From Psilocybe cubensis (taxonomy: Eukaryota), in the NCBI GenBank assembly GCA_017499595.2, contig CM038999.1, forward strand, positions 1,178,001 through 1,242,000: 64,000 nt of DNA, in the 5' to 3' direction. The notes below the pieces were generated by a model, which was not told the origin of the DNA, did no database searches, and was given only the letters and a program-made list of their open reading frames with translations. How positions within the stretch are numbered: the stretch's first letter is position 1; every line of letters starts with the position of its first letter. Below are positions 6,875-25,382 of the stretch, in pieces. A program made the position numbers and the translations under genes.

Positions 6875-9800
6875 TCAAAGCGCATCCGGCGAAATATCCC
6901 CAAGCGTATTCAACTCCCAATTCTCAAAGTTACTTCCAACCGCACTGAACCCGCTCGCAGATTTCGCATCATCTCCAAATTCAGAGCGCGAGTCGATCGT
7001 GTCCTTCATTGAAAGTTTGAATAAGTCAAAGTAGAAAAAAATAATAGACGTACATCAAAGTAATGCCTCAACACACTCCTCGGCGCTACAAAGAATCATT
7101 AATAAGGGAAAAAAAACAAAAGAGAATGAAATGAACACGTACTTCTAGGAGTCTTGGGCAACCTACAGCTCACACCGCTCTGCAAGATATGATACGCCAC
7201 AAGCCCACTCCACCCCGTCTGATGACTCGCTCCGAGACCTTTCCCGCTGTCCGCATGGAAGAACTAGTCACAAAAGAAATAATAATCAGCACCACACAAC
7301 CCAAAAGCCCAACACACAACACAAAAAAAACAACAAAAAAAACACACCTCATAAAACCACACATAATCCCTAAAATGCGGATCATAATCCAACTTTCCAT
7401 TGCCCCCATTCGTCGCTCTCCTCCCCTCGGCATCACGTCCAAAAATATGAATAATCCGATGCTGAATCTCCTCCGCCACAGCTACAAGGTTCATATACTC
7501 CCCTGAACCCGTCGGACACTCTACTTGGAGGTCGTCGCCGTAGTATTGGTAGAAGCGCTGGAGAGACTCGATGAGCAGGAAGTTGGTTGCTAGCCCTGGA
7601 AATAGTTAAGATTGTTGAGCATGGAAATGGAAATGGGAAGGGGAATGGGATAGAGGGAGGGTGTACGTACAAATCGGACCGCGCCAATTCGAATTCCCAC
7701 CAAACATCCCCGACTGCGAATCACCCGGCCAATACCCAACCTCATACCTCTGCCCATGCACATCGATCCCCCACGGATGCTCCTGATGCAGCTTCGAAAG
7801 TCTATTATTCACAGTTCAGTCAATGGTGTGTGTGTGTGTGTGTGTGTGTGTGAGTGAGGATGCAACCAGCATTTTAGCTCGAGTACGTACGATCGCACAC
7901 CATGCTCGCTCAAAAACTCGTTCTCGTCCAACATCTTTTCCAAAATCTTGACAAGCCGCTCTTTACTCGCAAGCGCTAAAAGCCTTCTCTGCTCTTTCCC
8001 ACCAACTATAAAAAGTTAACCCGTCAGCTCAAACCCACCCAAAAAACACAAACACAACCACAAAATCCAAAAAACCAAAAAGAGAAAGAAAAAAAGACCA
8101 AAAAAAAAAAAAACCAAAAAAACAACCAAAAAAAAACCCAACACCCACCTTTCATATTAGCCATATTCCTCCCCGCCGCCCCCGGCCTATTATCAACAAA
8201 CCACTCCATCCGCTTCTTAAACCCCGGGAACCGATTCAACACCGCCGGCTCCAACACAAGTGTCGCGTACAGGGGTATGAGACCGACGAGCGAGCGCACG
8301 GGGAGCTGGATGGAGTGGCCCGGGCCGAAAACGATGGCGTCGTAGTACATCCCGTCTGTTTCGTTCCAGAGCGAGCGCGATTCGTCGGTGGTGGAGGAGG
8401 AGTATGTCATGGCGTCTGCTATGAATATGAAGTGCTGTGAAAGTCGGCGTTAATGGTAATGGTAATGGTAATCGTACAAAGAAAAAGAAAACGCCGCACC
8501 TCGAAAAACTTGCTCGCAATATCCTCATAAACACTATTATGCTTCGCAAGCTCCAACGCAATACTCAACATATTCAAACAATAAAACGCCATCCACGCCG
8601 TCCCATCCGCCTGACGCAGCTCCCCACCCGTAGGCAACGGCTCACTCCTATTAAACGCCCCAATATTATCCAACCCCAAAAAACCCCCCTCAAAAACCCC
8701 ATTTCCCCCTTTATCCTTCCTATTAACCCACCACGTAAAATTCAACAGCAACTTTTGAAAAACCCGCTCCAAGAACCCCAAGTCCTCTTTACCCCCGTGC
8801 AGCTTGCGCTCGATTTTGAATACGCGGAATGTGGCCCATGCGTGGACGGGTGGGTTGACGTCGGAAAAGTTCCATTCGTATGCGGGGATCTGCCCGTCGG
8901 GTTTCATGTACCATTCGCGTGTGAGCAGGTCGAGTTGCTTTTTCGCGAAGGAGGGGTCGACGACGGCGAGTGGGATGCAATGGAACGCTGTATCCCACGC
9001 TGCGAAGAACGGGTACTCCCATCTATATTTAGATTTTAAAATAAGCGCCGGGCAAGGAAGAGGTAATATAAGTGACAAAAAAAAAGAAGCGCACTTGTCA
9101 GGCATACTCAACACATCTTCAACATGCATATGCCTCCACTCTCTATTCCTGATCCACTTCCTCTCAGGCGGCGGGGGCGGCTGCGCCGGATCACCCTCCA
9201 TCCACTCCTTCTGCACAAACCGATAATACTGCTTCGTCCACAACATGCCCCCAAACGCCTGCCTCATAATCTGCTTCAAATCCTCACTAATCGGGCCAAA
9301 CACAAAACTCGAGTAAAACTCATCCGCCTCCACACGGCGCTCTTCGAGCGTATCGTCGAATATCGTTTCGTCTTCTAGCGAGGGGTCCGCGGAGAGCCGC
9401 GAAGGTGTGAGTTTGAGTCGGGCGACGGCGCAGCCGCCGTGGCCCGGGACGTCAGCAAAGACGTACTGCGCGGCAGCCTTTGTCCCGCGCATCTCCGGGT
9501 TGACGAACGAGCCGGGTGTAGCAGGGAACGGGGTGCACGGGCCCTCCTCCACCACCTCCGGGCGCTCGTTCCCGAACAGCGACGCGGTGCGACTGCGAAT
9601 GCGCGGGGCGAAAAAGTCTTCTGGCTGCGAGGCCGACGCGGGCGGGCGGTGCGCTGGGATGATATGGTCGTGGAACGCGTCTTTGACGTAGGGCGTCTCG
9701 TTTGTCCCGCCGTATAGACGGCTAAAGTTGGTGTTGTTGTCGGTGAAGAGCAAGGCTGGCTGTACGACGTCTGCGCTGTCGTCGACTTCAAAGTCGGTGG

Positions 9801-11004
9801 TGGGCCCCACGGGTGGTGGGGAGGGTAGAGCGTAGAGGTGGGTTTTGCCGAGGGTCGGATGGCGGGCGGTGATGCAGCGGATTTCGTCTACGCCGCGCAC
9901 GGAGCCGGTGAGGGAAGGCATGGGTGGCTTTTCGAGGGGCCAGGACCAGGTGTTGGGGAACCAGAGCTGGGGGATGACATGCAGGGTGGCTGGATCTGGG
10001 CCGCGGTTGTAGGTGGTGATGCGGATGTAGAGATTGTCGGGCTCGTCCTCGTCTTTGGCGTACTAGGTAGATGTAAATAGGGGCTAGTAGATTAGATAAA
10101 AATGGCATACCTCGACAAAAACGTCCCAGTAGCGGTCTTCGTCAAAGGCGTCTGTGTCGAGGATTTCAAATTCTGCGACATCGCGTCCACGGCGTTGGTT
10201 TTCGTCGACGAGCTCCTCGTAGGGGAAGCGGCGCTGGGGGTACTTGTATAGAAACTTCATGTAGGAATGGGTGGGTGTGGAATCGAGGTAGTAGTAGAGC
10301 TCCTTGACATCCTCGCCGTGGTTTCCTTGATGACCAGTGACGCCAAAAAGGCGTTCCTTGAGAATGGGATCCTCGCCGTTCCAGAGGGAGAGACCGAAGC
10401 AGAGACGCTGGTGGTTGTCGCTTATACCTGCAATACCGTCCTCGCCCCAGCGATATGCGCGGGATCTGGCGTGTGCATGGGGGAAGTGGGACCAGGCATC
10501 GCCGTCCGCGGAGTAGTCCTCGCGAACAGTGGCCTGGGGTAGAGGTTAGCAAGGGCGGGGTAAGGCAAAGAGAGGACTCGCCCATTGCCTGTCGCTGAGA
10601 TAGGGCCCCCAGCGTTTCCAGTGGCGCTCGCGGGCGTCGTCTTGCTGGAGACGGTACTTTTCAGTGCCGATGTAGTCTGGACCGAGCTTTTTGGCGAGAC
10701 GCTCGCGGTAAGGGGGGAGGGGCTCTGGGGTGCGAGCGCGATTGTCGTCGTCTGGGGTGTTGGAGGAGGGGTCTGATATGCCCAACCCATCGAGAGCCTT
10801 GAGGGTGGTGTCTGGATCTGGTTTGGGAGAGTCAGAGGGTTTGGCGGGGGCAGACTTGCGGGGCGGGGGCGGGGTGGGGCTCTGAGCAGGCTTTGGGATG
10901 TGGATGGAGAGAGGGGTAGTGTCACGCGAAGGAGTGTCTGGAACAGAGCTCTGGGGAGATTTGCCAAAGAGGCGCTCCTGTACTTTGCGGGCAGCGCTGG
11001 CCAT
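6875..11004 (-). CDS. Glycoside hydrolase family 63-like (MGH1 / YMR196W-type) six-hairpin glycosidase
   Basis: Spliced motifs [90 protein letters not shown]. Stop TGA at 6875-6877 after DISPDAL. Confidence 0.9.
7826..7851. repeat. (GT)13 microsatellite within a GH63 intron
   Basis: Direct reading. Confidence 0.95.
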
Positions 11005-11114
11005 GGTGGTAGGAAAGAAGAGGTTATCGATGGAGAGTTGAAGGAGAATTAGAGAAAAGGGGATGACATCATTGGATCAAAACCGTGGGATGGTTGATAG
11101 ACGGTGTGGAACGG

Positions 11115-11138
11115 CAGCAGCAGCAGCAGCAGCAGCAG
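11115..11138 (+). repeat. (CAG)8 immediately upstream of the RhoGAP start
   Basis: Direct reading; lies in the 147-bp gap between two divergent ATGs. Confidence 0.95.
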
Positions 11139-11151
11139 AGCAGCAGCCACG

Positions 11152-14100
11152 ATGACGGACAGCACGCCGAGGGCGCATGTCTCCCCGCAGACTCTCTATC
11201 ACTCCTCTGCGCCAACTCCCCGCTCTTCCTCTCTTCCCTTTCCCTACCTCATGGGCCTCGCCCACTCAAAGCAGCACCAGCAGCAGCAGCAGCAACAGCA
11301 ACAGCCACAGACAAAAGGCATCAACCTCAAGCGCGCCTTTGCTGCTCGCCGCAAAAAAGAGTCTCCTGCGCAGGTCGCAGCTCTCCCGCCTACTCCCCCC
11401 TCCAAGGATACCGACAACAACAGGCACTCGGTCATCCCCCTCAGTCCAGGCATATCCTCCGCTGTCAACTACATCGCCCTCTACGACCAGTCTCCCTCTC
11501 CCTCAGAGCCACCCACCCAAAAGGACTCGTGGCGCAAGTCTGACTCTACCAACAGCCACCGCACAGTCCGCAATCCCACACGCTCCTCCCGCCCCGTATC
11601 ATGGGCAGAGTCCTTCCAGTCCGCACACACTGTCGTCCCCTCGGGCTCAGCCAGACCTCTCAGTGCCCTCATCGCAGATGCCGATTTTGGTGTCGCAGAG
11701 GAACTCGATGAGCAGGACGAGCGAGCCGAGCGACCAACTGAGCCGCGGACAGGAGCCGAGACCCATAGCGACGGCGATGATAACAGTAAATCCCAAACAC
11801 TCTCTTACCCCACACAGCCTACACCTACAACACCTACGCCCACCCAGACTAACCCATCATCAACCACTGCCCCTCCCTCCTCGTTCGCTACCACCCCAAC
11901 AACAACATCCCACAGACGCTCCCTCTCCCTCGACCACCCTCCTCCCACTCACACCCAATCCCATTCCCACCCACAGGGCCCAAACAGACTCCCATCGCAC
12001 TCCATCTCCGAAGGTGTCCCACGCCCCATGTTCCCGCACACACATACACAGCCAACAGCTGTAAGCCTGCACAACGCCCGTATCTTTCCAGTGTTGCCCG
12101 TCTCTTTGAGCCCGACTCCCAGCGGCTCCGGACAGCAGCAGAAACAGCAGACGCCGCTGCAGCCTCTACGGCCGAGCCATCAATTACATGGGCACGGTCA
12201 GGGGCACACCTCTTCAGCATCCGCATCGTCCACATCCACCACATCCACCACTTCTACTTCCACATCCACATCTGCATCTGCGTCTGCATCTACATCGTCC
12301 GCGTCATCTGCGTACGGCTCGGCATATGCATCAGCCTCAGGCTCCGCATCGTCGCTTTCAAGCCCAGGTCCCGGTCCCGGTCCAGGTACTCACGCACGGC
12401 CTCTCCCATCACATCCGCACCACGGACACGGAAATGCACACGGAGGATCTAAACCCCCTCCATCGGCATTTCCCTCCATGTCCTCCCCCTCCTCCTCCTC
12501 CGGCGCCCAGCTACACCCCCAACCACACCAGCTGCACCCGCACCAACACCAACACCAACGCACACAAACGACCTCAATATCAGGTCTCAACCCCGCTATA
12601 CTCGCAAAGCGCGCGGTGGAGGGTATGTCAGGCGGGCTGGGTGTACTCAAGATGAAGTTCGGTATGGGGTCGTCTTCTGCTTCCGGATCGGGGGGTGCGA
12701 GTCCTGGAGGCGCTGGTGCGGGGTCTGGAAGCGAGTACGAGAGAGAAAGAGAGAGAGATAGGGAGTGGGAAAGAGAAAGAGAGGTGGAAGGAGGATACTC
12801 CTCCTCATCTAGCAGTGCGGCGGTTAGACCAGCGGGTCCGAGCGCGTTCACATTTGGCAAAACCAAGAGCGCGTCGTCCGCCTCTGCTAGTGCACAGTAT
12901 GGGTACCCGTTGGGGAGAACGAGTTCGGGGTCTAGTGCCGGACACGGGCATACACAGGGGCAACAGGGACACACATACTCCAAATCGCACAGTCACTTTC
13001 TCTCTTCATCGTCTTCGCCTCCTTCCCATGCTTCCTCCCACCAACAACAACAACAAGGACAAGGCCATAGACCCGCACCCTCCATATCCAGCCTCTCCTC
13101 CCACACCCATTATGACAACCCAATCCAAAATGAAGGCCCGAACCTCGGTCGGCTCCTCCGCGGTCCATTGGTAAACACCAGTAGTGGGAAGAGGGGCACT
13201 GCAGGGATGGTGTTTAAGAGGGATTTGGGGCGGTGTGTTTATGAGACTGGTGTTTGGGTTGGTAGTGCAGGGGTTGGTGCTGGAGTGGGGAGAAAAGGGG
13301 TTGAGGGTGATAGCGCGTCGGTTTCTTCATCGTCTAGCGCTGCGCGGTCTTTATCCACCTCAGCTATCGGTTCAGGTGTGAACGCCAAAGACCCCGCCTC
13401 CTCCTCAAAAACCACCTCCTCCTCAAATCCCGCCAACTCCTCTCAACCCCCCTCATCCTCCAAACCCAACCAGCAACCAGACCAACCAGAATCCCAAACC
13501 CAAACCCAAACCCGACACCGCCTCGCCCTCATCCGCACCCTCGCAGACCCGTCCAAACGTCGTCTCCCCGCGCTGGTCGTAAGATGTGCGCAGCATTTGT
13601 TGGTGTGGGGTGTTTGTGAGGAGGGGTTGTTTCGGTGCGTTTTTTTTCTTTCTTTCTTTTTGTGTTGGTTATATTTTTGTGTTGGTTATATTTTATGTTT
13701 CTTTTCGAGTTCGAGTTGGAGTTGGAATTGCGATACTGACCACCTGCGTTTTTTTTGTTTATACAGAGTGAGCGGGATGCCGCAGCATGTGGCAAAGTTG
13801 AGAGCAGAGTTCGATGCTGGTGGGTACTCCTTTTTGCTTTTTCTTTCCCTTTTTACTATTACGAGTGCTTCTACGTGTCTCCTATTCTATTTTATACCGC
13901 GATTGCGGATTGCGGATATTGTGCTATGATGTGATGGGTACTGGGTACTGGGTACGAGGATGGCAACGCCTCTGCCTTTCTCGTTATCCATATGCATATC
14001 CGTATATGCCCTTTTTATTTCCCTTTCCTTTCCTTCTTATATCCCCCTTTTCATGTGTTAATGTATCACCGCGATGTGCGTGGATGGATGAATGTGTACA

Positions 14101-17100
14101 CCAGTGCGCTTGTGGATGGAAGATGGCGCTGGACGCTGGACTGGACGCTGGATCTGGATCTGGATCTGGATGTGCTCTGGATTATTTCAGATGCAATATT
14201 GCGGATGGGGCGGGTAGAAAGAATACAGCTAGACTCGTTCTAGTTTGGTCCTGGCTATTGGTACATGCGATGCGATGCGGATTCACATCGTTGTCATTCG
14301 CTTGGGCGACTTCTTTGCTTTCTTGCTTGATACTTGATACTTGCCACTTGATACTTGCTGTTTTCCTCTCTATCACCCGCATTGCGCTGCGCTGCGCTGA
14401 TTGCTCGAGATCAATTTTCTCCTTGCCTTGACTGACTGACAACTCGGGTTTTTCTATTTTTTTTTGGCGTTGACAGGATGCGACTACGACATGACAGAGT
14501 GTACACCGGGCGACCTGGACCCGCACGCCGTTGCGTCCGTGTTCAAGGCGTACCTGCGCGAACGTGCGTATCCCTCTTCCCCCCTCCTTTTTTCTGATGT
14601 CAAGCTGACGCTGACGCGGATGGACGTACAGTCCCAGAACCCATTCTCACGCAAAAGCTGCAGCCGCTGTTCGATGCGGCGGTGAGCAAGGAGACGAGTC
14701 TTAACACCAGCACCGCCGCCGCTGCCGCTGCGACACACATGCCCGTGCGCATGTCTGTTATCCCAGGCCGCGGGCTGCCAGCGAACCCCAAGTCAGGGCT
14801 GCCCAACAAACCCTCTTCGTCCTCCACATCCACATCCACCACTTCTTCTTCCTCCGCATCCAACAACAACAACAACAGCAACAGCCCACTAACAATGTCC
14901 CTCCCCCTCCCCAACTCCCTCCGCAAACCACCCTCCCTATCCACCCTCGCCGCGCCCTCATTCACCGGCATCCCCCCGCCCTCGCTCCAACTCACCCGCG
15001 CGATCCAGGCGCTCGTGGCGCTGCTCCCCCGGGAAAACAGGGATATCCTCCGCACGGTCGTTGATCTGATCAGGGCGACGGCGGAGCGGAGTAGGGAGAC
15101 GAAGATGCCGCTGAGCAACTTGATGCTGGTGTTTTGTCCGAGTTTGGGGATGACGCCGCCGTTGATGAAGGTGCTTTGTGAGGCGGAGGGGATTTGGGGG
15201 TCTGAGGATGAGGATGAGGATGAAAAAGATGAGGGTGATGGGGTGGAGGAGGGAGAGGAGGAGGAGGAGGAGGAGGAGGAAGATGATGTGATGGATATTA
15301 GAAGACGCACGGTTGTACCTGCAGACGCGTCAGCCGTCGCCGCTGCCCTCGACCATGACCACGATAACGACGTGCCACCGCCTACACCGGCCAAAGACGA
15401 TCTCCCGCTGAACATCCTCACGCGCCGCGCACCGCGCGGAGGAGATCTCGAGACGAGGAGTGTGGCTGGGTCGGATTACCATGCTTCGGCGGAGGGCGAC
15501 GACGACGCGAGTGCGAGTGCGTCGATGTCCTCTTCCTTTGCATCTATGCCTATCCCGGCTCCGCCTCCGCCTATCCCACCGCTGGCGCAGGGCAGACAGA
15601 CGCAGCTTAGCACCACGCCCTCCGTGCGCATCCGGCGGCGGCGCCAGGTCGTGTCGCCCGTGAGCAACACGAACACGAACGCGCGTGCGTCGGAGGTGCC
15701 GACGGTGTCGACGGTGTATCTCGACAGCCGCTCGGTTGTGAGCTCCGTGTCGTCGTTTGGTGGTGAGGCGGGGAGCGAGGAGAGTGATGGTGAGGAGGAG
15801 GATGAGGATGAAGATGAGGAGGATGAGGATGGGGAGGAGGATGAGCATCACCCGCCGCCTCCGCTCTCGGCGTCGGCCGAGTCGATCGCGACGCGGACGT
15901 CCTCGGGAAATCCGTCGTTTTCGCAACTTGAGACGTCAGCGGCGGCGGGTATATTGGCGGCGGATGCGAAGGAGAAAGGCGCGCATGGGCATGGTGGGTT
16001 GAGGTTGGAGATTGCGGATGTGGCGGGTGTGCCGCTGGAGAAGGGCATGATTGGCGGTAATGCTGGGTTTGCTGCGAACCCGAACGCGGCGGGTGGGGTG
16101 ATGAAGGGTGTGAACCCGTCAATGCTATCGCTTGCGTCTTCCGTTGTATCCAAGTCGAGCGCAGGTGCAGGCAAAGCGATCCAGTTCCCTTCGCGAGACG
16201 GCGCGCAGTCGCCTTACCACTTCTTCCCGCCCCCCGCGTCTGGAACTGGCACCTCGGCCTCAACGACAACGACTGGGGGCGATGCGACGAAGAGCAAGCG
16301 CCGCTCGATCCCTGTGCTCTCGCTGCCCAATTTCTCGCCGTCGATCGCCCCGCTCCTCCCGAACTTGTCGTCGTCGAACGCGTCGTCGCCTGCGGGGTCG
16401 CCGTCGCCGCATAGTGCGGGGTCGTTTAGCAGCGGGAGCGGGAATGGGAATGGGAATGGTGGTGGCTTTATCACCGGAGCGGTAGGACAGGAGAAGCAGG
16501 AGAAAAGCCTGTTGAGGTCGAAGAAGCCCTCGTTGCGGTTGTTGTTCTCGAAGCGCTCTGCGTCGTCGTTGACGGGTAATCGCGATAGGGATAGGGAGAA
16601 GGAGAAGGAGAGGATATCGGGCCCGATTATGGTTGTGCAGAGCTCGAACTCGACCTCGAGCTTGAATTTGAGCGCGGGTCCGAATCAGAGTCAGCAGATG
16701 CTTGCGCTGCAGCAGCTGCAGCACCAGATCCAGAGCCAGCATCAAAGTCAAAGCCAGAGTCTTGGTCTGGGTCAGAATCAGGGTCAAGGTCAGACCCCGC
16801 AGCCACGCACGCCGCGCTCAGCGAGCGACTCGTCGGTGTCGACGCCGTTGTCGGCTGTCACGGCGCCGCAGTCGCGGTCGAGTTTGATGAGTGGAGGCCA
16901 TGAGAGTTCGGGTGGTAGTAGTACCAGTACCGGCGGGAGTGGGAGTGGTACGGGGACGATGATGTTCCCGCCTGTGCTGGATACGCCTATTGAGGGCGGC
17001 GCGTTGGGGCTGGATTATGGATTTGGGGGGTTGAAAGAGGAGGAGGAGAGTGAGAATGAGAGTCTGAGCTTGAGCGCGAATAAGAATACGACGCAGAGCG

Positions 17101-17465
17101 CGCTGCAGCCTCCACAGCCGCAGCCGCAGATTGAATCTCCTCTTCTTACGACGGCGACAAGAAGGGCGGTCATCGGCCGTGGCACGATGAAGACTGCTCA
17201 GCAGAAGAGCGCCGCCGCCGCCTCCGCCTCCGCTGGTAGTTCTAGCAATGCACCATCACCATCTGCGACCCCGCTCTACCAACTTGGCCTACAAGCCTCC
17301 ACTAGCTCGTCGAATCTGTCTGTGACGTCCACTGCGTCGTCGCATCATCTAAGCTTGTTTGAGGACGAGGAGGATGATATGGAGGATTGGACGCAGAGCG
17401 TGTTGTTGGCTGCTGCTGATGTGGATGCGAATTGGGACTTTAGCAAGTCGTCGACGTTGGCGTAA
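11152..17465 (+). CDS. Large low-complexity RhoGAP-domain protein
   Basis: RhoGAP motifs over 4 exons: LPALVVRC..EEGLFR|VSG (arginine finger), DPHAVASVFKAYLRE|LPEPILT, LPRENRDIL..KMPLSNLMLVFCPSL. Introns ~13636-13766, ~13820-14476, ~14564-14631. Flanked by long S/Q/G/E-rich regions. Confidence 0.85.
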
Positions 17466-20122
17466 CTGTGGTGTTCTCCCTGGATTTTTTTTTGTTTTTT
17501 GGTTGGTTCGGTGTAGGGGCGTTTGAGGGCGTTTGGGACGATGCCTGGTGCATTTCATTGTGGTTTTTTGGGTTTGGGGTTTGGTAGGAAGAAAGGACGG
17601 AAGGAAGAATTGGTTTTTCTTTCTTTTGGATTTTTTTATTATTCATGCTTTATGGTGTTTTTATGTTCATGTTCATGTTCATTTTCGTCTTCGTCTTCGT
17701 CTTCGACTTCGATTTCGACTTTCATTTTCTCTTCCTCTTTTTTGTTGTTTTTTGATTATTTTTATATGCCTCTTTGATTTCCTTTTTTCATGTTTTTTTC
17801 TCTTTCTGCCACATCTACCTATACCCTCTGTTCATCATGATCGTTATCATCCATTATCTCATCATCATTGCTCATGGTTCAAATTGTCCTTTTTCTATCA
17901 TCACACCTATCATCACTGTTCACTGTTCATCACTATCATTACCATTCATCATTTTTCACACAAACATGATTAGTACATGCTGCATGCTACATGCCTTACT
18001 ACTTTCACCCTTTGCATTTTCTCACTCTTGCATCGCCACTGTTCTCTATTCACTTTTCTTTCACAAATTTATGTCTCTCCTCTTTTCCTCACATTGTGAT
18101 ACACACACACACTCTCTCTCTCTCTCTATCTCTGTTTTGGATCATATTAATTTATCACTACATTCATGCTTAACATATCAACATTACCATTTGTTCCACT
18201 ACAACTCACACAATCACTCATTTGTTTTGTTTTATGATTTTCCTTTTTTTGTCTTGCTTCAGTCTTCATCAATCTCATGATATGACACACACAATGACCG
18301 CACCTCACAGCCCTTCATAAATATAGTGTCATTACCCGCAGCATCACCATACAGTCTCACAGACCATTCACACTTTCTTTTTTTAGTTTCAGTGTTATGT
18401 TTTTTTTTGTTTTGTTTTTATGTTTGTTTTTCTTGGAAGTTGGAAGGTTGTTGGTACATTCTTGGACACTACTCTTTATTATTACTATTTTAAAGTTATA
18501 AGTAATCATTGATCAATCATTGGTATATATATCGTACCGCATGCAATTGCATTTTTTTTATTTTTTCGTCTGCCGGAATAAGAGAATCAGAGGCGATCTA
18601 GTGCTGGATTCCTCTGTCCTCTTGAGTTGAGATGTCACCAATTACACCGGCACGTATATTTCGCAAAAAAGTACCCATATCCGAGTAATCTCTATGTCAC
18701 CGAACAACACACCTATAACAATTGTGCTAGCCGATCCCGTGGCTTGCAGGCATTGCAGAACTGTGATAGGGGTAAGGACTAATCCATCGCAAGATAGAAA
18801 TCAATAGGCGATTGTTGAGATTGGGGTCGGCCAAAATGATCGGAAACCGGCCCACAAACATCGGCGCTTAAATTTCAATATGGCAGACTCAGGACGAGAA
18901 TTTATATATTAGTATGCCCACTCATCAACGACTTGTAAAATCATGTACACCGCAACCTTTACATACAGGCATTAATGTTAGAATGGATGGTACAAACCGT
19001 CAAGGTAATGAGCTTTGTAGATTTATTGAATGCTTTTAAAATCGTTGGCAAAGCTGAAAAATATATATTCGCAGTCAATGGGCTATGCCGGGTATTTTGT
19101 ATGATTATAGTGCGTTATAACTTACATTAAATTATGTACCAAAGAAGGAAGAGAAATCTACTATGAACCATTTCTCCTTTTTGAAAAATTCGTCGTGACC
19201 CTCAACAGTGCAGTGCAGGTATCTTGGCTTGGGAAAAATCGAGCAACCTCGACAGCAGGAATCTCCCCCTTGTCGTTTCGGAAGTGCTAAAGTTTCTCGT
19301 TTCAAAAGTGTATCATTCAGTCGCTCTGTTGTCTTAAAGGCTCAGTACGGTGGAAAACTTTAGCATGGATTCTAAAAATAGCGTAGCGGGTATACTTCCG
19401 CTGTTACAGTCGAGGCTGACCTTCCGGGCGCTAGGCAGTAATTACTAACACAGGGGGTTATGTAGTCTTTGAATCTCAAAGTGAAAGAAGAGACGTATGG
19501 TAATGGTGGGTGTATTATGTCTGAGAAAGTTTCAGGAAACTAGTATAGCCTGATAGAATCCCAACCATTAGTCTCGACCGTTTGCCCGCCAAATTGTTAA
19601 GTTCAAAATACAATTCTAAGTCCCTTTTCCCACGCACAGACATCCTATGAAAAACTGGATCATCAGATCTCGTGCCGACCGGTGACAAGACGCCCTCTGG
19701 ATGACCATCCATACTAATCTCAGTTCTAAACCAGGGACACCTATTTGCGGACACCTGCTATTGATGGACAACATTCCCCCGAGGAATCCATGATGTCGGG
19801 TTCCAGTACACAGCCTGTTTGGCAGAGCTTGAGCAGAGCCTTGGTGAGTGGGTTGATCGGTTCACTGTGATCAACATGTGAATTGGACAAAGCTGAACCT
19901 CACTCATAGATAAAAAAAATCATCCCTGTAAACCTGAGCCATACACCTTGCCATATACACGAGATTTATGTCGGCCCATCCGGATTTGTACTTGTTGCGG
20001 TAGCGTTCACACCTTTACGGAAAGTCGGTAGGACCCTGAATAATTCGTGGAACCTACCAACGACCCGTGCGCTGAAGCTCCACGAAACTCCGCTCTTGCC
20101 TTGCTCTTCTCTCTTTACACTC

Positions 20123-22050
20123 ATGCCTACTCTCAGTACGACCATCGAGGATACATCTCCAGTGATAATCTATTCTGGAAACGGCGGAGATTGGGTTGCA
20201 GGAAGCTCGACAAACGATAGCCTGGCTTCTCTGTGCGTAAACTTCATCCGTTTGAACTATACTCTATTAAACAGATGCATACTTGCGATAGATATTCGCA
20301 AGGGAGTTTTACTTTGACAAGTAGGAATAATGCCAATGCATCCTTCTCATTCTATGGAACTGGAGTGCAGATCTTTGGTGCGAAGAGGAACAACCATGGG
20401 CCGTATCAAGTTACTATAGATTCCACAACATATGCCCAAGTCAGCGGACAGGCAGCAGATCCTGGATCCTTCCAGACTTCTCTATTCTCTACTGTGGCGT
20501 TGACCAACGGATTCCATAAGGTTACTATAGTGAACCAGGGGTCCACATTTCTCGACATCGATTTCGTGCGTTTGTCGAGCCGCCATTCAGACGAACCAAC
20601 TGAAATTTATTGTGTGCCTTTCATAGATAACGTGGCAGACTCCTGTAGGATCATCAGATGAACCATTGCTATCTTCAACTATACAAGATTCAGAATCAGC
20701 CTTCGTATACACACCGGAATCAGCATGGAATGGGAGTCCACCTAATGTTGGGATGTTTTCTGGAGGTACTGGGCAGTACGTGAAGTATTTTTGGACATAG
20801 TATGATATGAACGTTGTCTTTAGCACTTCGACCACTGCCGGATCATCTGTTGAATTCACATTCACAGTCAGTGTTTTGGGGTTTCATCTACTTCAATGTT
20901 CTCATATTATCTGTTAGGGCAAGTTCCCATGCCAACTTCATGGTACTCTTTTTACATCCAACCCTTTGAAGGTTCTGCTGTGGAAATATTCGGACCAGTC
21001 GGACCTAGCGGTGCTGTGTTTTCAGCACAGCTAGACAGTAGCAATCCTACAAACTTCACTACCAATAAGCCGTATTATAGACCACAGCAGCTCCTCTTTC
21101 AGGCTGGAAACTTAGGCAACGGGAAACATACTGTCAAATTCATACAACAGTCTTGGGATAACTCTGCTCTGTCCTTCTCCATTGATTTTGCACAGGTTTT
21201 TACCACCCCGTCGCTACAGCAAAGGTCAGTAATGATGGATATCTTATTGGTAGACTCGTGTTAATGACTATATACCAGTGCCTCTGCAGGGTCAGACTTT
21301 TATGCATTTTCTGTGTCAACGAAGTACTAATATGGTTTACGAGAAGACTATCCGTAGGCGCTAAAACGGGTATTGCTATTGGAGTTGTTGCAATTTTAGC
21401 TGCGGCCATCGCTGCCCTAATCATATTTCTGCCTTCGAAGTATCTTAAGTTCTTCCGCCTGAAGGGAAGGTCTGTAGAAAAAGGCACAATTTCAGGGCCA
21501 TTCCTGTATCAACGAGTCAGTGGTGATTTGTCTGCGGGCATCCCGCCCCAATCAGCTCCCTATGGACGACCTACACACAGTGCACAACCATCTCAATCGC
21601 TGTCAAATTACACTCCTCCATCATCAGGCTTTCCTTCATCCGGTGGGACATATGCGCCCAGTTCAGATACATTGATTCAGGGCCCTAATGTATGTTTCGT
21701 ACATTTGATACGCCTTCTTCATTATGTGCCTGCGGCTTTCTGATATTGACTTTTTTCCACAGTCCCAAGTGATTTCAATACCATTCACTGCGGATGGAAA
21801 ATACAGACCTGATCTTCCCAGCACACCTCAACTCTTGCCACCACCAGGGACACGAAGAGATCCAACACCATCATCAAGTCGCAGTCACCTATCGGTGTTG
21901 CCTCCTGGAGCCGCTCAGCCGGGGGTGATTAGTGATGATGAGCTTGGGATGATTACTCAGGAGACGAGGCAAGGAACGTATATGACTCCACTACGTCGGC
22001 CAACTACTGCGAGTCTGGCTTGGACAGAGCCACCACAGTACCAACGGTGA
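20123..22050 (+). CDS. Single-pass membrane protein with two repeated galactose-binding-like beta-sandwich domains (paralog A)
   Basis: Two copies of an IEDT/IQDS..Y..W..F.F.G..V.IFG..G...V..D...H.V...IDF pattern; TM segment GIAIGVVAILAAAIAALIIFL; Pro/Ser tail ending EPPQYQR. Fold assignment is by resemblance only. Confidence 0.75.
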
Positions 22051-22891
22051 TGATATTGCAGCTACTTTTCCAGGTTTTTCTATCAAACTCGTTATCGGAT
22101 ATTTTATGGCTTATTTCCTTTGGCATCCAAACGACGACTTCAATAAAAATGACTATGACGATACTTATCTGCGATGGACGTACGTTGTATTTCAAGGGCT
22201 GCGGACCTTTCTTTTTTTCTTTCCTTTGACATGATAGGACATTTCCCCGTGGACATAATGTGATAAAGTAAATCCTGTATAACATAGTAGTTGAATAACC
22301 TGTGTGCGTGACAACGAACTGGAAGCATCATTTCCCTGGCAAAAAAGGTTTCAACTAGACACACATATTCACTGAGAGGTAGCAGTGAAGTTGGGAGGCT
22401 GGTCACGGAGATGAACAGCCGCTAAATGACCAGAGCTGAATATAAAAGCCCGTGTATTCAATTATAGAGCTCGAAAAATTGTCGACCAACACAGAATAAT
22501 GACGTCTGTGAGTAAAGCCGCATCCAAGTTAATTGACGCGCGTCCCATAGCGCGTCGCGGCGTCTCCTTGAAACCCGAAATTTGAGCAGATTTGGTAATT
22601 TTGCATCAAAACATCAGCGCCATCACTACGGCACTGAGCGGCATCAGACCCCTATTGCTGCCAAGTTCCTCTCAACCATCATCTTTATACCATCACGGTT
22701 CACCCCATCCCGCAAAAGCAGAATCTCCGACCTTACTGACTCACCACGGAGTCTTTAAATTTTCACGCGTAAGCGACAATCATAGAAAATCCCGTCCCAG
22801 GTTCAGACTTTGTGTTTCAATAATGATTCAGGCAAGTATTTAACGATGGAACGAATTCACCGTATTTCCTCAAAATTGCTGGTCAATTAAC

Positions 22892-24665
22892 ATGCCATCG
22901 TTTACAACGCTACTTGAAGATACTTCGCCGTTACTTGTCTACTCGCAGGCGAACTGGCAGGCTGGAACCTCAAATGGAGATGCTTTATTCGACAAGTCAG
23001 TAAATTGTCTAAATTTTGTCAACATCTACAATAGTACGACAGTTAATTGTGCTAACCCCATACCACTTTTCGTTATCAGATACTCGGATGCATCTTTTAC
23101 TCTCTCTCAGACGAAGGGTTCTACTATGACTTTTGGGTTCAATGGAACTTCCATATCTGTTTATGGCGCTAAACGAGGCAACCATGGTCAATATAACGTC
23201 ACGGTTGATAATTTCGAACCAACAACAGGTAGTGGTGCTTCAGATACGGAAACGTTTCAGCAGCTGTTGTATAGCTCTGGAAATCTGAGGTCAGACTACC
23301 ATAATCTGACGCTGCTTAACGTCGACGGGAGATTTCTAGATGTGGATTTTGTGAGTGGCTTTTCAATGCCTTTCCTTTTGTTATTAAATTACACACTTGA
23401 CAAGATCACATTTACGACGAGCGTTGGTCGAGACGATGAAGACATGATCATCAACACTTTTCAAAATGGCCATCCTGCATTCTCTTATAATCCCTCCTCA
23501 TCATGGAAGACGCCGAGTCAAGTTGAAAGATTCATGGGTGGCTCAGGCCAGTGCGTGAAATCTTCATCTTGACAACGACGAGGCATAAACTAATCAGTGC
23601 CAAATCCAATCAGTGCTACAACAGAATCTGCTACAATGACGTTTACATTTCAAGTACGCCGACTTACTTGTACTTGAGATAGTCGTTAATATATCTGACC
23701 ATTCTCTATTTGTGTATCGTTCAGGGTCAATATTTATCTTATTTTATATTGCCTTTATCCAGCGTGTTGATCAAAGGCGATTAATATAGGGGATGCAATT
23801 GCCCTCTATGGTCCAGTTGGTCCTTCTGCGGCATCGTATACCGTCCAGATTGATGGTGGTTCCACGATGCTATACGCTGCAAACCGGGTAATTTACAGGT
23901 CCCAACAAGTGCTATATTTTGCCAGCAATCTGGGCACAGGTATACACACCCTTCAAGTTCAAACATCATCAGCATCCGGCGAATTTGCTGTTGATTACGC
24001 CACAGTATACACAACAAAATCTTTGGGAGGAAGGTGAACATTTACAACACAGGATTTTGCCGAATCGAATGTTGATTGTGTCTTGCAGTCTGCTAACCGA
24101 TTCTGCAGTGCCAGTCGGCAACAGTTCAACTACCCCCGGGGAAGCAAGGTGATTTGGACGAAGTGGTATTTTTTTTGACAAAAAAAACTCATCATCATCA
24201 AACTTCCTTTTTAGAGTACTTTATAAAACCCCGGTAATCGTTATCATAGGCTTGGCCGGAGTGTCCGCCATTCTTTTATTCATGATTTTGGGCTGCATCT
24301 TTCTTACAGTACGCCTGCGCCGTACACGAAGATCCATGGACAAGTTACTCAGAGTTGGCGTTCTGGATCCTGAACTCGAAGCCACTGTACAACCATTTCC
24401 GGTCGAGTATCATTCTGTCAGCAGTAGTCAAAGCTTACTTCCTCGAAGTGGTACACCAAGTAGTGGAATCACGCATGTCATGCAAGGCACCTCGACAGAT
24501 AATGTCAATGGAGGTTTTACAACTGTTGAGCTAATTGCTCCGGGAAGAGCGCTTGTTAGAGAGGCAAAGTTTCCAAATGGACATACACCTAATCCTAGTA
24601 TTGCTAGCTCGAGTTCATCACATCTAGCCGCGCCACCACGATATCAACCAATGGATCCTCGATGA
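22892..24665 (+). CDS. Single-pass membrane protein with two repeated beta-sandwich domains (paralog B)
   Basis: Collinear with paralog A (MPSFTTLLEDTSP vs MPTLSTTIEDTSP; GAKRGNHG vs GAKRNNHG; FLDVDF vs FLDIDF) and shares intron positions; TM VIVIIGLAGVSAILLFMILGCIFL; tail APPRYQP. Confidence 0.75.
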
Positions 24666-25382
24666 TATAGAAGGAAAAGTAGTCAACACTTGATTTATTG
24701 TCCTATTTTGTATTATTCCTAAACAAAATGTATGCCCCTTGGGCTGGCTGTAGCTTTAATGTTCAATCCAAAGATTGAAAAGTGTTAAACTGGTTGACAG
24801 TATGCCTATTATCACCAAACTTGATGGTCATACAACCTACACATGTAAGTCTAGACATATACCAAATGTCGAGGCGCAGTGAGGATAAAAACACTCTTTG
24901 GCTGTCAGGGTTACCTTTCAGATCTGAGTGTGTTTCTACTCTACAGTATCAAATACCACAGATTAGTACGTATGATAGAAAGCCAGCGGCTGGTGGTATA
25001 ACCCAATGCGGTTTTTGTTATATACATTTTTGCTACACTGTACACGGTGGAATCATCCATATACACCAAATATCTCGTGGTGGTGGTGATAATGAATTTT
25101 CCAAGGATGGTGATGATGGATGTTGTATAATCGCTACAATGCAATAGGGTATATTAATTGAGTGGTGGTGACGTGAGAATGAGTGAGTTGATGTTGCTGG
25201 AGGTATTCATATGTTTTCGCCTAGATATCTGCATATCACAAAACGGTGAACGAGGGTGATGAATTTCGATAGGCAAGGAATGCGCGGGGTTCCGGGAGGA
25301 CGCGCTCTGAGTTCCGTCGGGCCTGCGTGATCCGACGCCGAGCAAGCATAAGTTAAGAAAAGATCGAACCGCAAAACAAGAT

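Follow-up and report, generated by a model that had tools for sequence, protein, structure and literature searches.

What becomes of a 105-base block (20867-20971) that, in a gene of the mushroom Psilocybe cubensis, splits a conserved glycine codon between two coding exons? The initial annotation, made from the letters of the 64,000-nt stretch in which the gene lies (hereafter the window, to which all positions refer), had read the block as two adjacent introns separated by a single exonic base, G20918, the second intron having a GC donor. On the basis of public transcript and DNA contigs, related genes and published cases of one-base exons, we conclude that G20918 is very probably a true one-base exon between two U2-type introns, both of which are removed, the G being ligated into the message.

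The gene and the interrupted junction

The product is predicted to comprise two repeated beta-sandwich-like domains, one membrane helix beginning at about residue 288 of its 490 codons, and a Pro/Ser-rich tail. Its family has 1259 representatives at E <= 0.001, and the exon used for searching is 100% identical to a public P. cubensis protein of 494 aa (P0001). Pfam gave one weak match to the product, CE2_N (E 0.0012), under the family cut-off. P0001 was deposited as 'A type blood alpha-D-galactosamine galactosaminidase', a name unsupported by this sub-threshold match, and its relatives are named 'transmembrane protein' or 'hypothetical'. An Rfam scan of the window returned 0 matches.

The junction lies in the second extracellular domain, within the conserved protein motif F-x-F-x-G-x-A-V-x-[LI]-[YF]-G; the counterpart that had been pointed out in the first domain of the same protein, FSFYGTGVQIFG, is indeed present. 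The features around the junction are listed below; the branch sites are candidates, identified by pattern match only.

20123..22050, + strand: coding region of 9 coding exons, 490 codons plus TGA, with joints taken from the spliced contigs X1 and X2
20824..20866, + strand: 43-nt exon, 3' end GAA TTC ACA TTC ACA (EFTFT), GAATTCACATTCACA, phase 0 at its end
20867..20917, + strand: intron a, 51 nt, GTCAGT...TAG, with CTCAT, 13 nt short of the 3' end, as candidate branch site
20918..20918, + strand: one-base exon G, base 1 of the conserved glycine codon G|GT
20919..20971, + strand: intron b, 53 nt, GC donor GCAAGT...AAG, with TTTAC, 17 nt short of the 3' end, as candidate branch site
20972..21224, + strand: 253-nt exon beginning GT TCT GCT (GTTCTGCTGTG; ..SAVEIFGPVGP..), phase 1 at its start

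The exon end, both introns and G20918 stand in the sequence exactly where the initial annotation had placed them. Positions 20915-20924 read TAG|G|GCAAGT, that is, a canonical acceptor, the retained G and a GC donor; intron b is a GC-AG intron, with the remaining donor positions at consensus and an AG acceptor. Both introns had been described as normal in size for this gene, and their 51 and 53 nt indeed lie within the 48-73 nt of the introns outside the block (59, 61, 48, 54, 56 and 73 nt by RNA joints).

The reading frame places narrow limits on how the block can be spliced. By frame translation, a stop arises at codon 212 if the whole block is taken out, at codon 230 if intron b is retained and at codon 208 if intron a is retained, all upstream of the membrane helix; the expected frameshift ahead of the helix, whether the block is removed as one intron or intron b is kept, is thus borne out. 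When G20918 alone is retained, a 490-codon open frame reading EFTFT-G-SAVEIFGP results. An exhaustive search for one or two introns with GT/GC/AT-AG/AC ends in 20840-21000 yielded a single solution, 20867-20917 plus 20919-20971, so that the central proposal, G20918 between a GT-AG and a GC-AG intron, is the sole canonical decomposition; the same layout recurs in six further genes (see below).

Transcript and DNA contigs

Five public runs of one organism contain the stretch, and four of them were compared over 20100-22060. Two (X1 and X2) are samples of one study, with one contig each, and were presumed to be RNA, as their splicing shows; the other two (X3 and X4) are DNA contigs from a second study.

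In both the X1 and X2 contigs, 104 of the 105 bases of 20867-20971 are removed, and the mature message retains a single base of the block. The joint runs from 20865 to 20970, with 104 bases skipped and 2 bases assignable to either side, and its letters, TTCAC-AGGTTCT, equal TTCACA+G+GTTCT. Both contigs therefore carry the junction predicted beforehand, TTCACA-G-GTTCTGCT. The other joints of these contigs (20232>20292, 20565>20627, 20775>20824 and 21689>21763) have GT..AG ends throughout, and the bin 20892-20957, in the intron interior, has depth 0. X1 and X2 contain the fully spliced form only, assembly into contigs being a step that drops rare variants.

Taken by themselves, the letters of the message are also compatible with a single intron of 104 nt whose ends are GT..AA (20867-20970), TC..AG (20868-20971) or AG..GA, in which case the internal AG-G-GC of the block would be irrelevant. 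Such an intron would leave the same message, and an aligner indeed reports a single joint that skips 104 bases. It would, however, require an end other than AG or GT/GC, with a canonical AG or GT available at a distance of a single base, and it would be longer than every other intron of the gene (48-73 nt). The comparison with related genes, presented in the next section, bears on it further.

Another way to an open frame, and the outcome that had been named in advance as counting against the extra G, is a main message spliced from a donor at 20871 (GTGTTT) to the 20971 acceptor. The single 101-nt intron so removed would give FTFT-VS-SAVE (letters TTCACAGTCAGTTCT) in an open frame of 491 codons. 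It is found in neither X1 nor X2: both spliced contigs skip 104 bases, not 101, with the reservation that contigs drop rare forms.

Finally, the break in frame could come from a mistake in the assembly, or from decay of the gene with a frameshift particular to this strain. The frame problem is itself the one observation in favor of this idea, which we regard as extremely unlikely. X3 and X4 are unspliced and colinear with the window over 20100-22060, with 0 gaps, and they have the same bases at the block and SNPs elsewhere; since no indel occurs there, a sequencing indel is not the cause. Moreover, the gene is transcribed, its message is in frame, and six other genes share the layout.

Conservation of the one-base exon in related genes

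Paralogs were sought within the 64-kb window, and one was found in tandem with the gene, at about 22892-24700 (+ strand), 29-34% identical to P0001 and to a second family protein, P0005. Its predicted splicing at the corresponding junction, which is read from the sequence only, is as follows.

23654..23724, + strand: paralog intron a, 71 nt, GTACGC...CAG, after ...TFTFQ
23725..23725, + strand: paralog predicted one-base exon G
23726..23789, + strand: paralog intron b, 64 nt, GTCAAT...TAG, then GG GAT GCA (GDAIALYGP)

A word-limited and hence weak search of public proteins with the paralog's downstream exon gave none that was 100% identical, the best being 67%.

We also scanned metagenome contigs with a peptide pattern taken from a different exon; the query was built from an alignment of 8 sequences (A2), a 40-sequence alignment (A1) having proved too diverse. 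Thirteen loci were retrieved, of which 8 are interrupted at the junction, 4 are uninterrupted (L001, L003, L006 and L012) and one, L009, ends upstream of it. The 8 interrupted loci provide 10 junctions, two loci holding two tandem copies each, and all ten fit one pattern: FxFx|GTNNG..(49-56 nt)..AG|G|G[TC]..(46-60 nt)..AG|GN. The survey of orthologs for AG-G-G[TC] that the initial annotation had proposed thus recovers the motif in 10/10 interrupted metagenome junctions and in the window paralog. A single intron at the junction was found in none of the 13 metagenome loci, L009 stopping short of that point.

Near-identical loci were collapsed, which left 7 distinct genes including the window gene and the paralog. 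The downstream exon is 36-55% identical among the five genes with at least 41 residues of it, in a matrix computed without the paralog; L004 ends after 12 residues. The intron sequences are unalignable across genes, their similarity being no higher than that of unrelated sequence. An internal AG-G-G[TC] with both halves of at least 40 nt arose in 1.0% of 20,000 shuffles of the window block, and shuffling gave a chance of 1.0-2.6% per gene. Both halves have a candidate branch motif at a distance of 5-17 nt from their 3' ends in all genes, with the exception of intron b of L005. The base after the lone G begins a GC donor in 2/7 genes, namely the window gene and the member represented by L007, L008, L010 and L011 (GCATGA).

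The conserved layout in relatives argues against the single 104-base intron left over from the transcript data. That reading has no account of a mid-block AG-G-G[TC] in 7/7 genes with unrelated introns, where chance would supply the motif in 1-2.6% of cases per gene, nor of the branch-like motifs near the 3' ends of both halves, and we consider it quite unlikely. The one-base exon, in contrast, is an old and constitutive arrangement, common to the tandem paralog and to distant family members; it is documented by RNA in the window gene and predicted from the sequence in the others.

Tandem copies of the family also occur at two metagenome loci, L008 (3001-7139) and L011 (683-4819), each with two copies about 3 kb apart and a one-base exon in each copy. 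The window is thus not the only place where the gene has been duplicated in tandem.

Origin of the intron pair

Introns a and b were considered as possible tandem duplicates of one another, and this idea was rejected: their interiors score 15 against a shuffle mean of 12.7 (p 0.2). We then placed the intron states on an unrooted tree of 13 rows, built without L004, L009, L008b and L011b, whose cover was too short. The loci L003, L012 and L006, uninterrupted at the junction, form their own well-supported clade, and all three have introns elsewhere in the gene. L001, also without an intron at the junction, pairs as sister with L005, a carrier of the one-base exon. The L001 sequence (336-1381) shows one frame break near residue 34 and is uninterrupted at all later intron positions of the window gene; it could be a contig from a partly spliced transcript, or else a gene whose introns have all been lost except the first. 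The unrooted tree would suit an intron pair that was present ancestrally and then lost as well as one gained later. That no single-intron state was seen fits a joint loss of both introns.

Donor strength and order of intron removal

If G20918 is a one-base exon, as is very probable, the pre-mRNA has two separate U2-type introns of ordinary size, with a full set of donor, branch site and acceptor in each, and the lone G that they enclose is ligated into the message, where it supplies base 1 of the conserved glycine codon. AG at 20916-17, the intron a acceptor, appears to fall within the -3 to +6, or U1-binding, region of the intron b donor. Such an overlap would prevent the two sites from being recognized at the same time, so that the introns would be removed sequentially, by intron definition.

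The donors of the two introns differ in strength. None of the intron b donors (0/7) fits GTNNGT, as opposed to 5/7 for intron a and 7/7 for the next intron upstream, and a G at donor position +5 is present in 3/7 intron b donors versus 14/14 controls; these seven genes share ancestry, and the contrast does not amount to seven independent trials. While intron a is still in place, all 7 genes have AGG at -3 to -1 relative to the intron b donor. With intron a gone, these positions become CAG or AAG in 5/7 and stay AGG in 2/7.

The strong donor of intron a suggests that this intron is the one most likely to be removed first. Ligation would then put [C/A]AG in front of the weak intron b donor, as happens in recursive splicing. 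From these sequence features, we put the chances that intron a leaves before intron b, with the ligation improving the weak second donor, at about even. The initial annotation had also proposed that skipping might switch the gene between a full-length receptor and a truncated or NMD product; such a regulated switch, like an obligatory order of splicing, is conjectural. A broader proposal, which we offer tentatively and hold to be somewhat doubtful, is that the one-base exon is ancient and family-wide and that the degenerate donor following it (0/7 GTNNGT, 2/7 GC) stems from obligatorily ordered splicing, intron a first, in which the exon-G junction [C/A]AG|GY enables the second donor. If true, this would be a short-intron form of recursive splicing that retains one base, and the gene family would offer a natural series of variants on how the spliceosome defines an exon too small to bind.

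Recursive splicing at zero-length exons takes place at AG|GTAAGT ratchet points in long Drosophila introns, with no base kept. In both cases acceptor and donor are close neighbors, and the donor used next may have its exon side restored by the first ligation. In contrast to the Drosophila sites, with their very long introns and strong regenerated donor, the introns here are of about 50 nt, the second donor is weak and one base is kept. A zero-length recursive splice site was rejected as a description of the window gene, the G between AG and GC being retained in the message.

Comparison with known one-base exons and stwintrons

The rarity of one-base exons, asserted in the initial annotation, needs qualifying, as a long-read annotation of Coprinopsis cinerea is described as holding 13 of them in 13 genes (PMC12230235). 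That host, like P. cubensis, is an Agaricales mushroom, and according to the same account omitted microexons break gene models (PMC12230235).

A close parallel is described in the CYP621A P450 genes of Fusarium, which have a one-base exon (Nelson and Syed 2026, PMC12940212). As reported there, the likenesses are a fungal nuclear gene, a lone G between AG and GT (CYP621A motif AGGGT) that lies within a conserved glycine codon, a combined intron of about twice the usual intron size, conservation among orthologs, support from reads spanning the joint, and omission by automatic annotation (PMC12940212). The two cases differ in that CYP621A is an ascomycete P450, whereas the window gene encodes a basidiomycete membrane protein; in that the G is the middle base of its codon in CYP621A and the first base here; in that the spread described for CYP621A is among orthologs of one genus, compared with paralogs and relatives only 29-55% identical here; and in the GC donor that follows the G in 2/7 of our genes (PMC12940212).

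[quoted passage not shown] This too is described as a constitutive one-base exon between two spliceosomal introns that had been mis-annotated in the database; the difference is one of organism and of proof, a plant gene with reporters there and contigs with sequence comparison here (PMC4674806).

The initial annotation had also set the junction apart from stwintrons, and this distinction is correct, as one base of the block is retained and no G stands ahead of the first donor. Stwintrons of filamentous ascomycetes, of types [D1,2], [A2,3] and [D1,2]/[A2,3], are described as nested: the donor (G|T) or acceptor (A|G) of the external intron is split by the internal one, and nothing of the block stays in the message (Fekete et al. 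2017, PMC5587772). The window gene resembles them in having a short, composite intervening sequence whose two parts meet at a G and in what are, here by inference, two consecutive U2 reactions by intron definition, and it departs from them in that neither intron interrupts the donor or acceptor dinucleotide of the other and one base is kept (PMC5587772). We rejected a stwintron at this locus: the exon ahead of the first GT ends in ACA and hence not in G, the intron a acceptor is followed by G instead of T, and one base is retained.

A full-text literature search on one-base exons returned no paper on the window gene's family or on Psilocybe. The window gene is therefore another instance of a recently described rarity, real but of an already published kind; what it adds is the spread of the exon through a gene family, the donors downstream of it, GC or weak, and the faulty annotations to which it leads.

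Consequences for gene models

The public model P0001 is wrong at the one-base-exon junction. It reads ...EFTFTGKFPCQLHGSAVE... there, taking intron a out, reading on into intron b and then introducing a 29-nt 'intron'. Were this model correct, GGCAAGTTCC... would be coding (GKFPCQLHG) and intron 20943-20971 would be genuine. The deposited protein of 494 aa is what speaks for this reading, and it has next to no probability: bases 20919-20942 are missing from both RNA contigs, an intron of 29 nt is far under the 48-73 nt of the gene's other introns, and the eight extra residues lack a counterpart in the family consensus.

P0001 fails at a second place. It lacks a microexon of 12 bases, with QQR-LSVG in place of QQ-SASAG-LSVG.

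21279..21290, + strand: 12-nt microexon, TGCCTCTGCAGG, between introns 21225-21278 (54 nt, GTCAGT..CAG) and 21291-21346 (56 nt, GTCAGA..AAG)

X1 and X2 show 11 letters between 21224 and 21346, which become 12 with canonical placement of the cuts. The public gene model is thereby corrected at two places. At the position of this microexon, a single intron is present in L008, L010 and L013, and a small exon, about 27 nt long, in L002.

We surveyed the models of homologs by aligning 145 of the 150 best family representatives, 5 of at least 700 residues being left out. Junction classes were counted over 144 models, P0001 excluded; the models were read as proteins, with their DNA unseen.

Clean x-G at the junction: 80/144 models
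V[SR] replacing G (artefact of a +4 donor shift): 6/144 models
Insertion beginning with V (GT read-through): 14/144 models
G then extra residues, often GK = GG[TC]AAG: 5/144 models
Otherwise disturbed at the junction: 21/144 models
Junction uncovered, or model stops there: 18/144 models

At least 25 of the 144 models thus have V.., V[SR] or G plus extra residues at the exact junction, and 7 further models stop within a few residues of it. Ten disturbed models that were looked up belong to Agaricales, Hymenochaetales and Boletales, and the models of two Coprinopsis relatives, P0021 and P0055, are disturbed at the junction.

The six models with V[SR] in place of G are what the same +4 shift of donor would be expected to give, and to that extent they favor use of the donor at 20871 in the window gene. 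These models are predictions, however, and the glycine that the shift displaces is kept in 80/144 models; taken together with the joints of X1 and X2, this makes a main message from that donor very improbable.

The one-base exon would account for the mis-prediction of a mushroom protein family at one spot. Where gene finders and spliced aligners are unable to place an exon of one base, shifted donors, tiny introns or truncations are the outcome. The seven diverged copies, each with a weak donor after the G, constitute a comparative set for the recognition of this intron pair and for the order of its removal.

Other features of the window

Positions 8000-18000 of the window have 54-59% G+C, versus 43-48% elsewhere. 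This region contains long uninterrupted frames: one of 941 aa has no Pfam match, one of 927 aa includes a RhoGAP domain, and one of 500 aa, on the minus strand, includes an MGH1-like glycoside hydrolase domain.
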